Source: Candidatus Latescibacterota bacterium (GTDB taxonomy: Bacteria; Latescibacterota; UBA2968; GCA-2709665). From it: a stretch of 64,000 bases of DNA. How positions within the stretch are numbered: the stretch's first letter is position 1; every line of letters begins with the position of its first letter. The stretch spans positions 2,272,001-2,336,000 of the forward strand of contig OZ242358.1 in assembly GCA_965208835.1 (NCBI GenBank), in the 5' to 3' direction. The notes under the pieces are model-generated. The model saw only the letters and a program-made list of their open reading frames with translations. It was not told where the DNA came from and did no database searches. The translations under genes and the position numbers were made by a program. Positions 21,371 through 28,698 of the stretch are shown piece by piece.

Positions 21371-21532
21371 GAAGCTGTGTTGGAATTCCCGGTGCGTTCC
21401 CGAGCGCGAGCGAAAGCGTGTCGGTCCAGGCGGGCGAATTCGCCCGTATCTGTGGATAGGTGCGGATTCAACCAACACAGACCGACGCGTTTGCAGCCGC
21501 GCGAAGACCGCTGGGGATTTTCATACTGTTTC
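21371..21532. mobile_element. MITE family A, copy 2 (degenerate TIRs)
   Basis: GAAGCTGTGTTGGAATT ... GATTTTCATACTGTTTC; shares TTCCCGAGCGCGAGCGAAA and TTTGCAGCCGCGCGAAGACCGCTGGGG. Confidence 0.75.
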
Positions 21533-21547
21533 GGAGGGAGATCGTCA

Positions 21548-24182: not shown

Positions 24183-25081
24183 ACCGGTCATTCCATCCGG
24201 ACGGAGGAACGGGTGTTGGAGCCGCCGGATCACAGGTCCTGGCGGGCGCCGGCTGGGGCGGTCTGTTCTGGAAGCGGCTCCTGAAGAACCGGCTGGCGGC
24301 TGCGGGCGGCGTCCTGCTGCTGGGATTCCTGCTGCTCGCCATCGCGGCGCCCCTGGCAGCGCCGCAGGATCCCTTTGCTCAGAATCTGTACGAACGCCTC
24401 CAGCCGCCTTCGCTGGCGAATCCGTTCGGTACGGATGACTTCGGAAGAGATGTCCTGAGTCGCGTCATTCACGGCGCGCGGATTTCGCTGCGGGTGGGGG
24501 TTACCGCCGTGCTGATCGCGCTGGTCCTGGGCGTTCCGATCGGACTCGTCTCGGGGTACTGGGGCGGCGCGATGGATCAGGTGTTGATGCGGGCGATGGA
24601 CCTGATGCTCGCATTTCCCAGCATCCTCCTGGCCATCGCCATTGTTGCGATCCTGGGACCGGGATTGGAGAATGCGATGCTGGCGGTGGGAGTCGTCGCG
24701 GTGCCCCAGTACGCCCGACTGGTGCGGGCATCGGCGCTGTCCGTGCGTGGACAGGACTACGTTCACGCAATGCGTGCGCTTGGCGCGGGAGATTTCCATA
24801 TCCTGTTCTTTTCAGTTCTCCCGAACTGCCTGACGCCCCTGATCGTGCAGTCCACGCTGGGTCTGGCGACCGCCATTCTCGATGCTGCGGGCCTGAGCTT
24901 CCTTGGACTGGGCGCGCAGCCGCCCTTGCCGGAGTGGGGCGCCATGCTCACCGGCGGGCGGGAACTTGTTCTGCGGGCGCCGTGGGTATTGACGTTTCCG
25001 GGCGTGGCGATCTTCCTGACTGTATTGGCATTCAATCTGCTTGGAGATGGATTGCGCGACGCCCTGGATCCCAGGACCTGA
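24179..25081 (+). CDS. dppC: Peptide ABC transporter permease
   Basis: FGTDDFGRDVLSRVIHGARISL, LSFLGLGAQPP, NLLGDGLRDALDPR; ATGA overlap with dppB. Confidence 0.92.
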   Translation: MNRSFHPDGGTGVGAAGSQVLAGAGWGGLFWKRLLKNRLAAAGGVLLLGFLLLAIAAPLAAPQDPFAQNLYERLQPPSLANPFGTDDFGRDVLSRVIHGARISLRVGVTAVLIALVLGVPIGLVSGYWGGAMDQVLMRAMDLMLAFPSILLAIAIVAILGPGLENAMLAVGVVAVPQYARLVRASALSVRGQDYVHAMRALGAGDFHILFFSVLPNCLTPLIVQSTLGLATAILDAAGLSFLGLGAQPPLPEWGAMLTGGRELVLRAPWVLTFPGVAIFLTVLAFNLLGDGLRDALDPRT

Positions 25082-25099
25082 CGTGGCTGGAGAAAGCCT

Positions 25100-25128
25100 T
25101 TGACTTCCGCATTCCTGTAGCGTATATT
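25100..25128 (+). promoter_or_regulatory. Sigma70-type promoter of a small standalone transcript
   Basis: TTGACT(25100-25105)-17 bp-TATATT(25123-25128). Confidence 0.7.
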
Positions 25129-25155
25129 CGGCTTACACGGAAAGGAGGTGGTCAA

Positions 25156-25191
25156 ATGAGCGAAACGACCAGTGGAGGTGGCTGTAGTTAG
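25156..25191 (+). CDS. Putative 11-aa micro-peptide MSETTSGGGCS
   Basis: AAAGGAGGTG SD, 5-nt spacer, ATG ... TAG. Confidence 0.4.
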   Translation: MSETTSGGGCS

Positions 25192-25333
25192 GTGCGCTGC
25201 CGGGTGCGGGAGAACATCTCGTCTGGTAACGCGCCTGGCGAATCTAAGCAGCCATCGAAAGACAGGCGATCCGTCGTCCCGACGGGCCCCGGCGATTGCA
25301 GGGGCGCCGTGAGATGGAAGCCGTCTCAAAAGT

Positions 25334-25390
25334 TGCGCCGTGAGGAGATGTGGCCGGAGTACCGGCTCCCGAATCGCGGCGCATTTTTTT
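25334..25390 (+). terminator. Rho-independent terminator
   Basis: TGCGCCGTGA / TCGCGGCGCA stem enclosing a GCCGG-AGTA-CCGGC hairpin, followed by T7. Confidence 0.7.
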
Positions 25391-25409
25391 GTAAGGTAAG
25401 GGTTTGTGC

Positions 25410-25438
25410 TTGACAAAATCACGCTGGCTTTATATTTT
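25410..25438 (+). promoter_or_regulatory. Promoter of the rplM-rpsI operon
   Basis: TTGACA-17 bp-TATTTT. Confidence 0.6.
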
Positions 25439-25519
25439 TTGAGGCTTGACATTGCGTGGAATTGTCATGGAGAGGGGGTGAGTTCGAATTCGGCGTCAAT
25501 GTGGACGCCGTTCGGATTT

Positions 25520-25954
25520 ATGAATACGCCAAGCGCTAAAAAATCTGACGTCGAACGCAAGTGGTTTCTCGCTGATGCCGAGGGTAAGGTGCTGGGTCGT
25601 TTTGCGAGCGAGGTTGCCCGGATCCTGATGGGCAAACACAAACCGTATTATACGTCCCACGTGGATACCGGCGATCATGTCATCGTGGTCAACTCCGACA
25701 AGCTTATGGTCAAAGGCGCCAACAAACCCGATCAGAAGGTCTATACACGCTTCAGCGGATATCCTGGCGGCCTGAAGACCAAAACCCTGAAGCGAGCGCT
25801 CGAAACACAGCCTGAGTTTGTGCTGGAACATGCGATACGGGGAATGTTGCCACGCACGAAACTTGGGCGCAGAATGATGAAGAAGGTCCGAATTTACGCT
25901 GGATCCGATCATCCGCATGGGAGTCAGGTGCCTGAAGCGATCGACCTTGCCTGA
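25520..25954 (+). CDS. rplM: 50S ribosomal protein L13
   Basis: WFLADAEGKVLGR, GKHKPYYTSHVDTGDHVIVVN, SGYPGGLK, GMLP. Confidence 0.98.
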   Translation: MNTPSAKKSDVERKWFLADAEGKVLGRFASEVARILMGKHKPYYTSHVDTGDHVIVVNSDKLMVKGANKPDQKVYTRFSGYPGGLKTKTLKRALETQPEFVLEHAIRGMLPRTKLGRRMMKKVRIYAGSDHPHGSQVPEAIDLA

Positions 25955-25998
25955 ATTCCGCCGTATCAAAGCGTCGTTGAACGAGAGGAGGTAGGGTC

Positions 25999-26391
25999 TT
26001 GGCAGAGATCCTTGCTTCTGCCAGAGGCCGGCGCAAGTCGGCAACGGCAAACGTAAAGCTTTTTCCCGGATCCGGAGAAGTAACCATCAACGGCAGGCCG
26101 ATTCTGGATTATCTGAAGCGCGAGACGCTGGTGATGATCGTCGAGCAGCCGCTGGCGGTTACGGAAACGACCGGACAATTCAACATCGTCGCCAGCACCA
26201 AGGGCGGCGGTCTCAGCGGTCAGGCAGGGGCCGTTCGACTGGGTATCGCCCGCGGCCTGCTCGCCCTGAACGAAGACCTCAAGACGCCGCTGCGCGAGGC
26301 CGGGCTTTTAACCCGCGATGCGCGAGAGGTGGAGCGAAAGAAGCCGGGTCGCCCCGGGGCGCGCAAACGGTTCCAGTTTTCCAAACGTTAA
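25999..26391 (+). CDS. rpsI: 30S ribosomal protein S9
   Basis: GRRKSA, GGGLSGQAGAVRLGIARGL, VERKKPG..GARKRFQFSKR; GAGGAGG RBS with TTG start. Confidence 0.98.
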   Translation: MAEILASARGRRKSATANVKLFPGSGEVTINGRPILDYLKRETLVMIVEQPLAVTETTGQFNIVASTKGGGLSGQAGAVRLGIARGLLALNEDLKTPLREAGLLTRDAREVERKKPGRPGARKRFQFSKR

Positions 26392-26527: not shown

Positions 26528-26611
26528 GAAGCTGTATTGAAATTACTGGTGAGTTGCCGACCGGCGCCTTTGCAGCCGCGCGAAGACCGCTGGGGATTTT
26601 AAGACAGCTTC
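26528..26611. mobile_element. MITE family A, copy 3 (internally deleted, 84 bp)
   Basis: GAAGCTGTATTGAAATT ... GATTTTAAGACAGCTTC with the shared TTTGCAGCCGCGCGAAGACCGCTGGGG core. Confidence 0.82.
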
Positions 26612-26624
26612 TCAGGAGGATTGT

Positions 26625-27435: not shown

Positions 27436-28035
27436 ATGGCAATTTCTGCGAAGATGGTTCAGGAACTACGGTCAAAGACCAACGTGGGGATGATGGATTG
27501 CAAGAAGGCCCTCGTCGAGAGTGGCGGGGACATGGAGAAAGCTATTGAGCTTCTGCGGACGCGCGGCGTCGCCAAGGCGGAAGACCGTGCGCACAAGACG
27601 GCGAAAGAGGGGTTGATTACATCTTACATTCACACCGGCAGCAAGCTCGGTGTGATGCTGGAAGTCAACAGCGAGACTGATTTCGTCGCCCGTACGGATC
27701 AGTTCCAGACGTTTGCCAGGGACCTCGCAATGCACATCGCCGCCAGCGCGCCGATCGCCGTGAGCCGGGATCAACTGGATGAAGCGGGTATAGAGCGGGA
27801 ACGCAGGATCTTCAGGCAGCAGGCGCTGGATGAGGGCAAACCCGAGCGGGTTCTCGATCGGATCGTGGACGGACGTCTAGAGAAGTATTATCAGGATGTA
27901 TGCCTGATGGAACAGCCCTTTGTTAAGGATCCGGACAAGACCGTCAGAGACCTGTTGATGGATCTGATCGCACAGTGCGGTGAGAATGTGACCGTCAGAA
28001 GGTTCGAGCGGTTTGTCTTGGGAGAGGAGAGCTGA
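27436..28035 (+). CDS. tsf: Elongation factor Ts (short 199-aa form)
   Basis: VQELRSKTNVGMMDCKKAL, EVNSETDFVAR, LMEQPFVKD. Confidence 0.98.
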   Translation: MAISAKMVQELRSKTNVGMMDCKKALVESGGDMEKAIELLRTRGVAKAEDRAHKTAKEGLITSYIHTGSKLGVMLEVNSETDFVARTDQFQTFARDLAMHIAASAPIAVSRDQLDEAGIERERRIFRQQALDEGKPERVLDRIVDGRLEKYYQDVCLMEQPFVKDPDKTVRDLLMDLIAQCGENVTVRRFERFVLGEES

Positions 28036-28140
28036 GTGCGTCAAATGCCGGCGCGATAAACCAGACCGGCCAGCCACGGGGCTCAGGTTCGGAATCTCCC
28101 TATCAGACGACTTCCGTTTATTTGTTAAGGGACGAAGCAG

Positions 28141-28698
28141 ATGGTCGACGAGATTATTTCAGAGACCAGGCAGTCGATGGCGAAAGCCGTTGAAGCGTTC
28201 CAGCACGAAATGGGAACGGTTCGTACGGGGCGTGCAAACACGGCTTTGCTGGACAATATCCGTGCTGAATATTACGGTACGCAGGTGCCGTTGAACCAGG
28301 TCGCGACCATTGGCGTACCGGAGCCGAGGTTGATCGTACTTCAGCCGTGGGACAAGAGCGCGATTCCGGCAATCGAAAAGGCCATCCAGACGTCGAATCT
28401 GGGTCTGACGCCGTCCAGCGACGGGACCGTCATCCGCCTGCCGATACCCCATCTGACGGAGGAGCGCCGCACGGAACTCGTGCGTGTGGTTCGGCAGATG
28501 GCGGAAGACAGCAAGGTCTCTGTAAGGAACGCACGTCGGGACGCCAACGAGATGTTGAAAGACGGCCAGAAAGAGGGCGAGATACCTGAAGACGAATCCA
28601 GGAAGGGGCAGGATCAGGTGCAGAAGCTGACCGACGACTTCGTGGCGGAAATCGACGAGCTGCTGGTGCGGAAGGAAGAGGAGATTATGGAGGTCTGA
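28141..28698 (+). CDS. frr: Ribosome recycling factor
   Basis: VRTGRAN, IPHLTEERR, VRNARRDAN, KEEEIMEV. Confidence 0.98.
   Translation: MVDEIISETRQSMAKAVEAFQHEMGTVRTGRANTALLDNIRAEYYGTQVPLNQVATIGVPEPRLIVLQPWDKSAIPAIEKAIQTSNLGLTPSSDGTVIRLPIPHLTEERRTELVRVVRQMAEDSKVSVRNARRDANEMLKDGQKEGEIPEDESRKGQDQVQKLTDDFVAEIDELLVRKEEEIMEV

Follow-up and report, generated by a model that had tools for sequence, protein, structure and literature searches.

A candidate ribosome-docking small RNA from Candidatus Latescibacterota, predicted to belong to a multi-phylum family that keeps a mini-ORF but not its peptide

Bacterial small RNAs (sRNAs) are rarely conserved beyond a family or an order. Here we describe an element of ~255 nucleotides (nt) in a Candidatus Latescibacterota genome (assembly GCA_965208835.1), the 120-nt core of which recurs in the samples of five phyla. 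The element lies in a 64,000-nt stretch of contig OZ242358.1 (positions 2,272,001 to 2,336,000, forward strand), referred to here as the window, and coordinates count from the first letter of that stretch (Table 1). From its sequence, the element is a predicted free-standing small RNA gene and represents the Latescibacterota-type branch of a multi-phylum RNA family, of which the Rfam entry Ms_IGR-5 (RF02471) forms the actinobacterial branch. What the family conserves is a complete translation cycle on a frame of ~12 codons, which is set within covarying helices and accompanied by two complements to the anti-Shine–Dalgarno (anti-SD) sequence, with the peptide left free to vary. This combination points to the ribosome as the ligand of the RNA, and we favour with moderate confidence the interpretation that the element is a regulatory RNA with a conserved anatomy on which ribosomes would dock. 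An Rfam entry that was previously anonymous thus becomes testable.

An earlier reading of the window from the sequence alone had proposed an undescribed RNA and suggested a search against Rfam. At the gathering level, the whole window indeed gave no match; in E-value mode, however, the element matched Ms_IGR-5 below threshold (27.6 bits against a cut-off of 45; E 2.5e-4 over 701 nt), along the full length of the consensus (1–184). A search of the whole genome with RF02471 gave no match other than this one (E 4.4e-4). Two further sub-threshold matches at the element, Scr1601 (E 0.14) and CC2171 (E 2.2), were rejected, as they extend over no more than the terminator or a short stretch. Ms_IGR-5 was reportedly first found in Mycobacterium smegmatis. 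The full-length match, together with reciprocal detection by a covariance model built from 22 sequences of the window's order only (model R1), indicates that the element is a distant relative of Ms_IGR-5 beyond the reach of the Rfam model, so that 'undescribed' no longer applies.

The wider family was sampled with a 20-nt pattern that holds both SD motifs (GGAGGTGGTC-N8-32-GAGGTGRCTG), scanned against one genome per species. At least 80 loci were found and, among the matches listed, most were from Actinomycetota; others were labelled Blastocatellia, Planctomycetota, Acidimicrobiia, Syntrophobacter and, in two cases, Candidatus Latescibacterota. The latter two elements (L107 and L145) are near-identical to those of the window's genus type and of its sister family; Latescibacterota-labelled elements therefore fall outside the taxonomic range of Ms_IGR-5, which is Actinobacteria. 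Model R1 matched 37 of 40 pattern-selected loci over their full length, and the three that it missed (L077, L111 and L131) look like chance occurrences of the pattern. In a second R1 search, 76 of 77 sources gave a match; this total includes 10 from the order itself, and each of the 66 foreign loci searched was recovered full-length. Seven loci preselected by the pattern (L067, L101, L115, L070, L075, L083 and L119) were found full-length by R1 with E-values of 1e-6 to 5e-3, which for R1 and for the cross-phylum model R2 used below are rough, and the same seven score 85–176 bits with RF02471. The 3′ strand of helix P3, the joint GCGAAU and the closing strand CAGYCAYC all lie outside the search pattern and therefore provide independent evidence of homology.

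When applied to 18 of these loci, RF02471 placed 11 above its cut-off and failed on 7: all nine actinobacterial and both Blastocatellia-labelled loci score 49–176 bits, and those missed comprise the two Planctomycetota loci, L102, L088 and three short forms from Latescibacterota. For annotation this means that the Rfam model overlooks Latescibacterota, Planctomycetota and some other branches. The element shares with Ms_IGR-5 an alignable 5′ ACAC, the long SD GAAGGAGGUGGUC, the P1 hairpin, GAGGUGGCUG, a P3 that bears the stop codon, the joint GCGAAU and the P2 strand CAGYCAYC, and both are single-copy and free-standing with a mini-open reading frame (mini-ORF) in all members examined. It differs in that its 11 codons are one base out of register with the 12 actinobacterial codons, in its shorter P1 loop with an SD-to-start spacing of 7 nt, and in having its own P4/P5 insert and another 3′ domain.

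The mini-ORF carries the argument. In the cross-phylum alignment (A2; 76 sequences fitted to the model structure), every member has a start codon 7–14 nt after GGAGG, from which an open frame leads to a stop codon at the base of P3. The codons themselves vary, with ATG (37), TTG (23), GTG (13) and CTG (3) as starts and TAG (70), TAA (4) and TGA (2) as stops, and the frame spans 11–14 codons. NTG triplets in the start window number 73 in this frame as against 17 and 3 in the others; between start and stop there is no stop codon in frame, compared with 115 and 45 (160 in total) out of frame. The stop codon stands 14, 15 or 16 nt from the G of GAGGTG, depending on the lineage, and the conserved GAGGTGRCTG is consequently read in three frames: GGA-GGT-GGC here, GAG-GTG-GCT in Actinobacteria and AGG-TGG-CTG in Planctomycetota. 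The resulting peptides (TSGGGCS, RTREVAAR and NQRWLLQ) are unrelated. Varied start and stop codons, a frame without internal stops and three registers through one motif together argue that translation, as an open start-to-stop frame, is under selection and the peptide is not. Among 22 loci recovered by model R2 rather than by the pattern, the same arrangement is present in 20 with canonical start codons and in 21 when CTG, ATT and ATC are allowed; the exceptions are one locus with an ATT start only and the weakest match, which has no stop codon inside the matched stretch.

These observations bear on the possibility that the locus is a gene for a functional micropeptide of 11–14 residues with a secondary role for RNA structure, as the sequence-only reading had entertained after it had correctly recognized the start codon, the 11-codon frame MSETTSGGGCS and the internal GGAGGTG. 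The ORF is indeed kept universally, and C-terminal residues recur by lineage (TSGG[GD]C[SR] in the order, S/C-AGDCWG in another family of the phylum and RTREVA in Actinobacteria). Against this, the frame changes across phyla turn the same conserved nucleotides into unrelated peptides (EVA..., GGGC... and RWL...) without any shared property, and both conservation and covarying helices reach more than 60 nt beyond the stop codon. Within the order, the ORF always has 11 codons, of which codons 2–4 change freely and non-synonymously (S/I/T/N, E/D/K/I and T/M/K/S/L/Q/E), whereas 17 of the 21 nucleotides of codons 5–11 are invariant, third positions included; this indicates a constraint at the level of the RNA on a frame that is kept open. 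A comparison of peptide with nucleotide conservation, which had been put forward as a check, thus finds conserved nucleotides in three frames and no conserved peptide across the family, and we regard a micropeptide gene as improbable. The dual-function sRNAs SgrS/SgrT, RNAIII/hld and SR1/SR1P likewise combine a structured sRNA with a translated short ORF; their peptides are conserved and functional, whereas in the family described here the peptide changes with the frame.

Longer coding frames were also considered. Read-through of the TAG into a 73-codon frame is not conserved, and one relative (L043) has a stop 11 codons on (read by eye). Two ORFs overlap the element, one of 229 amino acids on the minus strand and one of 73 amino acids on the plus strand. 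Neither matches a Pfam family, and the 3′ domain has indels whose lengths are not multiples of three, which speaks against protein coding.

Two complements to the 16S ribosomal RNA (rRNA) 3′ end accompany this frame, one ahead of its start codon and one inside it. The 16S gene of the same genome ends in ...GGATCACCTCCTTTCT, and the first complement, SD1, pairs with the tail GAUCACCUCCUUUCU. A 13-nt pairing through AAAGGAGGTGGTC (25141–25153) had been noted before; it is present but extends further, to 15 nt with two G–U pairs. SD1 forms the strongest 16S-tail duplex on either strand of the window (−26.2 kcal/mol; the next best reaches −22.6 kcal/mol), which bears out the view that it is exceptional among the SD sequences there. 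The window holds a single exact copy of its 14-mer; when two mismatches are tolerated the count is three, close to the chance expectation (0.79 ± 0.87). Across the family, the predicted SD1 duplex has a median of 16 pairs, at −29.3 and −27.4 kcal/mol, and SD1 begins ~5–8 nt from the inferred 5′ end in all members. Among the 22 R2-found loci it is often the perfect GGAGGTGATCC; in 6 of the 22, GGUGGUC is replaced by GGUGAUC (read by eye), and both versions pair with the same U of the 16S rRNA. The second complement, SD2, lies inside the ORF. Its GAGG ends 10–12 nt before the stop codon in 75 of the 76 A2 members (9–12 nt in most of the independent set), and in this element the last sense codon starts 7 nt after it, exactly the spacing between SD1 and the ATG.

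Two complements within 40 nt, the first of ~16 pairs at about −27 to −29 kcal/mol throughout the family, would also suit a pure sponge that titrates the 16S 3′ tail, or with it the 30S subunit, and for which translation is irrelevant. Such a sponge has no use for a conserved start codon, frame and stop codon, and a single-copy gene would need very high expression to act in this way; we think it quite improbable. A different possibility is that ribosome binding serves as a 5′ stabilizer only, that the effector lies elsewhere (the joint GCGAAU, the 3′ strands of P2 and P3 or the 3′ domain) and that the mini-ORF disposes of ribosomes that initiate. In Gram-positive bacteria, STAB-SD stabilizers of mRNA 5′ ends bind the 30S subunit through a 5′-proximal 16S complement of the GAAAGGAGG type. 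The GAAAGGAGG of the element is presumably of this type and we counted it in favour of the stabilizer, as we did the 5′-proximal position of SD1 in all members and the conservation of a single-stranded joint outside the ORF. A STAB-SD is not known to need a start codon or ORF, yet the in-frame start is kept in 76 of 76 members by means of four different codons, and the stop codon keeps its place with respect to SD2 and P3 to within 3 nt. We consider a stabilizer somewhat unlikely.

The start-to-stop frame is embedded in structure. Folding of 25135–25392 gives −120.5 kcal/mol (z = −4.3), and none of 200 shuffled sequences folds as well. In A2, 91.4% of cells are paired, and compensatory changes occur at 24 of the 34 pairs; none of five measures was equalled in any of 500 shuffles, and partners slid out of register are 32–44% paired. 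RNAalifold, when run freely on A2, recovers P2 and P3, with compensatory changes in 11 of 16 pairs. The strongest case is P3, which holds the stop codon and in which 11 of 11 pairs have compensatory changes across phyla, 7 of these 11 being recovered by RNAalifold unaided. P2, which closes the core domain and encloses P3, is 97.6% paired with compensatory changes in 4 of 9 pairs, and the two helices together account for the long hairpin at 25177–25256 that had been recognized from the sequence. P1 is short and is supported by conservation, not by covariation: all cells are paired within the order and 87% across phyla, with one-sided changes only. Downstream, three further hairpins had been proposed; the fold instead gives one compound 3′ domain, then a bulged terminator hairpin and a T7 run. 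A GCGAAU-type joint motif is common to the element and to actinobacterial members; the 3′ domain is kept among family-level relatives with indels and substitutions. An alternative helix, P3b (GCCAGG-GCG with CGC-CCUGGC), which RNAalifold proposes from the order only, was rejected as the ground state because the cross-phylum data favour P3a; P3b does form in the fold of L017 when the 5′ strand is blocked.

The docking interpretation would combine these parts as follows. The single-stranded 5′ end would capture a 30S subunit with unusual affinity through SD1, and initiation would take place in the loop of P1, at the start codon 7 nt downstream. Very long SD duplexes slow the clearance of start sites. 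A ribosome covers ~15 nt on each side of its P site and must unwind the RNA that it covers; elongation through the 11 codons would accordingly strip the 5′ strands of P1, P2 and P3 in turn. With the stop codon in the A site, P3 would be fully open, and the initiation-like spacing of SD2 from the last sense codon would allow the anti-SD to re-pair with SD2, so that the ribosome is held. SD-like sequences upstream of stop codons retain the small subunit on mRNA after termination. In the occupied state the 3′ strands of P3 and P2 and the conserved joint would be free, and the RNA would alternate between two conformations according to ribosome traffic. It may in this way report on, or titrate, translational capacity; possible outputs are the titration or parking of ribosomes, the exposure of the freed strands to a partner, or stabilization of the RNA alone. 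The 30S/70S sequestering put forward in the sequence-only reading may likewise apply. Engagement with the ribosome, which the sequence-only reading had placed at the centre of its account, thus finds support as the defining feature in the long anti-SD complement, the start codon, the conserved mini-ORF and the second SD-like site.

By analogy only, 6S RNA and Ms1 offer a parallel as abundant, free-standing RNAs that resemble the natural ligand of a core machine; here the ligand imitated would be an idealized mRNA start. There is no relation in sequence or structure, and ribosome binding by the element is a prediction. Carried further, the analogy would make the family to the ribosome what 6S RNA is to its own target: an RNA of ancient origin, spread over five phyla or more, that mimics an ideal mRNA start, captures ribosomes through a duplex of 15–16 nt, has ~11 codons translated, holds the ribosome again at the stop codon by means of SD2, parks or recycles ribosomes and so alters the proportion of SD-led to SD-independent (such as leaderless) translation with the state of growth. 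We offer this as speculation that is rather doubtful in its full form. The element also has features in common with transfer-messenger RNA (tmRNA), namely a structured RNA, a short internal ORF and a conserved stop codon, but it lacks a tRNA-like domain and its ORF has its own SD and start codon. In keeping with the earlier view that hallmarks of tmRNA are lacking, ARAGORN found no tmRNA or tRNA gene in 24500–26000 and Rfam gave 0 matches at the gathering level.

Several points weigh against the docking interpretation or reduce the evidence for it. One ordinary gene of the same genome has an SD of equal length, and a long SD is therefore not special per se. The 13-mer of SD1 has 2 copies in the 5.18-Mb genome (the rRNA gene itself excluded), of which the second is an ordinary ribosome-binding site (RBS). 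Because the SD1 motif alone is not unique, it is conservation that gives the element its significance. Conservation of the SD motifs in A2 is in part there by construction, as the foreign loci were chosen with a pattern that contains them; neither the order-level BLAST set nor the 22 loci found with R2 suffer from it. The alignment A2 was moreover fitted to the model structure, which favours that structure, and related sequences are not independent, nor are counts made across relatives. Covariation within the order is weak (2 of 34 pairs, a value reached by 141 of 500 shuffles). Finally, Ms_IGR-5 is reported to carry ribosome footprints in M. abscessus and M. smegmatis, which favours docking, but the authors list these among footprints on many noncoding RNAs, so that they are no proof of translation (PMC4974804). 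Expression of Ms_IGR-5 homologues in Streptomyces is described in two further reports (PMC8079986, PMC8780764). In the literature searched, which left out the original description and supplementary files, neither the mini-ORF rule nor the twin SD nor the occurrence in several phyla was found described.

The remaining evidence concerns the gene itself. The element occupies a 438-nt spacer between the OppC-type ABC permease gene (end 25081; Pfam BPD_transp_1 and OppC_N) and rplM (25520–25954; Pfam Ribosomal_L13), and the compact unit from promoter to T7 fills the first 290 nt of this spacer. The near-consensus promoter and the separate rplM promoter had both been correctly located, as had every other position given by the earlier reading, and a promoter scan detected 2 promoter-like sites as against 0.5 expected from shuffles. 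We infer that transcription starts at the conserved ACAC (25135). A simple terminator scan returned 0 sites, although a hairpin and U-run are visible in the fold; the scan probably missed them because the loop of the hairpin is longer than it allows. A T-rich run closes the element in nearly all of 31 aligned relatives (read by eye) and is weaker or diverged in L060 and L061. Its own terminator, the separate promoter of rplM and unrelated neighbours elsewhere together support the standalone structured unit that had been proposed, as a free-standing gene and not a leader.

A BLAST search of 41 related genomes located one copy in each of 40. On the scale of the phylum, the two families of the order have the element in 20 of 21 and 31 of 31 genomes, respectively, with essentially none beyond. 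The element is single-copy in its source genome, and a dispersed repeat, which had been named as an outcome that would undo the proposal, is ruled out by the presence of one copy per genome. Order alignments show invariant promoter hexamers (TTGACTT and TATA) and invariant ACAC, GAAAGGAGGTGGT, ATGA, GAC.AGTGGAGGTG.CTGT and TAG; the 5′ core is constant, and the flanks and 3′ domain drift. GGA loops of the CsrA type in the 3′ domain were discarded as a candidate feature, as the order's two families do not share them. One copy in the sister family (L061, genome G038; 53 bits with R2) keeps the first ~65 nt with SD1, ORF, SD2 and stop codon and then diverges, and a weak second partial match occurs in another genome (G026:C1:4613923-4613971).

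Location next to rplM invites another explanation, that the element is a cis-acting leader or attenuator of the rplM–rpsI operon that senses translation through its mini-ORF. The element is directly upstream of rplM here and rplM is adjacent at 25 of 31 order-level loci (tblastn); alternative pairings of the 3′ strand of P3 also exist and, when the first 65–66 nt are blocked in the folds of three sequences, an alternative helix uses this strand. In the same folds, which are thermodynamic only, the terminator hairpin persists in three of three sequences with the ribosome-covered part blocked. The unit has its own hairpin and T7 terminator and rplM its own promoter. Adjacency to rplM is local: tblastn found it at 0 of 26 loci of other families and phyla, and not at L056–L061 of the same order. 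Rfam leader families gave no match at the element in gathering or E-value mode. The earlier suggestion of a leader that senses the translational state is consequently disfavoured, and we regard it as highly improbable; the position upstream of a ribosomal-protein operon is real here, but a functional link is unsupported, as neighbours differ between phyla. Leader-peptide attenuators such as those of trp and erm resemble the element in that translation of a mini-ORF must remodel downstream helices; they differ in that the element has no cis-regulated gene, its terminator is constitutive in silico and its neighbours are unrelated.

To describe the distribution of the predicted ribosome-docking RNA, we applied model R2 with strict filters to 100–150 genomes sampled per phylum. 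In the phylum to which the window belongs, 85 of 151 genomes gave matches, among them a short form of ~84 nt from another family. The phylum that contains the Mycobacterium-labelled record gave 50 of 101; five of these genomes are flagged as unpublished (G373, G390, G420, G454 and G460, all of which match), and setting them aside leaves 45 of 96. Matches were found in 17 of 101, 10 of 101 and 3 of 101 genomes of the phyla of the Blastocatellia, Planctomycetota and Syntrophobacter-labelled records, respectively. Nearly all positive genomes hold one match each; two or three matches, mostly weak, occur in G393, G026 and G106. The 8.4-Mb genome G170 (L088), labelled 'uncultured Heliobacteriaceae', belongs to the same phylum sample as the Blastocatellia-labelled L140 (G168), and its label is probably wrong; Bacillota are therefore not counted among the phyla. 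RF02471 also gave matches below its cut-off in Caulobacter and Thermus control genomes and none in Corynebacterium; no conclusion is based on these sites.

The genes next to the element vary with the lineage. They include a DAHP synthase in Planctomycetota, an OPT transporter in Blastocatellia, citrate synthase in Streptomyces, and a class-IV aminotransferase and a THAP4/nitrobindin-like gene in Mycobacterium; within the order, the permease lies upstream in many loci and rplM downstream in many, neither in all. By its numbering, the Streptomyces RNA scr4389 probably lies near the citrate synthase neighbourhood, and it may be the same RNA as the family member. In Planctomycetota and in the short Latescibacterota forms, a clear hairpin and U-run follow directly after the core.

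Table 1. Positions of the element's features in the window (predicted from the sequence)
Feature	Position	Strand	Detail
Sigma-70-type promoter	25100–25128	+	−35 TTGACT (25100–25105), 17-nt spacer, −10 TATATT (25123–25128); 10 of 12 consensus matches
Conserved ACAC, inferred transcript 5′ end	25135–25138	+	~7 nt after −10 box; aligns to position 1 of the Ms_IGR-5 model
SD1	25139–25153	+	15-nt complement to the 16S 3′ tail; 13 Watson–Crick pairs and 2 G–U
Helix P1	25149–25171	+	25149–25153 with 25167–25171; start codon in 13-nt loop
Mini-ORF	25156–25191	+	ATG 25156, 10 further sense codons (MSETTSGGGCS), stop TAG 25189–25191
SD2, internal GGAGGUG	25174–25180	+	GAGG ends 10 nt before the stop codon
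Helix P2	25177–25256	+	25177–25185 with 25248–25256; closes core domain
Helix P3	25187–25239	+	25187–25196 with 25230–25239; stop codon in 5′ strand
Hairpins P4 and P5	25198–25228	+	Lineage-specific; enclosed by P3
Single-stranded joint GAAUCUAA	25240–25247	+	Between 3′ strands of P3 and P2; outside search pattern
3′ domain, compound hairpin	25260–25325	+	Lineage-specific; not shared with other phyla
Intrinsic terminator	25333–25390	+	Bulged hairpin 25333–25382, then A and T7 (25384–25390)
Separate rplM promoter	25410–25438	+	TTGACA-17-TATTTT

Some further observations concern sequences that resemble parts of the element. The other exact AAAGGAGGTGGTC of the genome (G000:C1:1837375; L225 176–188) is the RBS of a 154-amino-acid ORF that, on a reading of the sequence alone and without a domain search, resembles a 2Fe–2S (CoxS-type) subunit; this RBS is preceded by ACAC, is followed 7 nt later by a GTG start codon and is unmatched by model R2. 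The consensus of the Caulobacter sRNA CC2171 (Rfam RF01867) starts with GAAAGGAGGUGAUCC, a perfect anti-SD complement, with a GUG 7 nt later, and CC2171 is possibly a further branch of the family or an analogue. The second-strongest 16S-tail duplex of the window lies in the rplM leader (25469–25486, plus strand; GGAGAGGGGGUGAGUUCG; −22.6 kcal/mol), ~34 nt before the rplM ATG (25520) and followed by a GGCGTC...GACGCC hairpin; it could be a stand-by site or part of a ribosomal-protein leader. The third-strongest (25982–25999, plus strand; −20.6 kcal/mol) lies just before rpsI.

Elsewhere in the window, a direct repeat of 66 nt, 83% identical between its copies (21480–21545 and 26559–26624), was first noticed as a peptide string shared by ORF translations. 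Each copy is directly upstream of a gene start, that of a solute-binding protein gene and that of rpsB (ATG 26625), and includes the RBS region. At 27436–28698, frr comes directly after tsf (199 amino acids), without an intervening pyrH.

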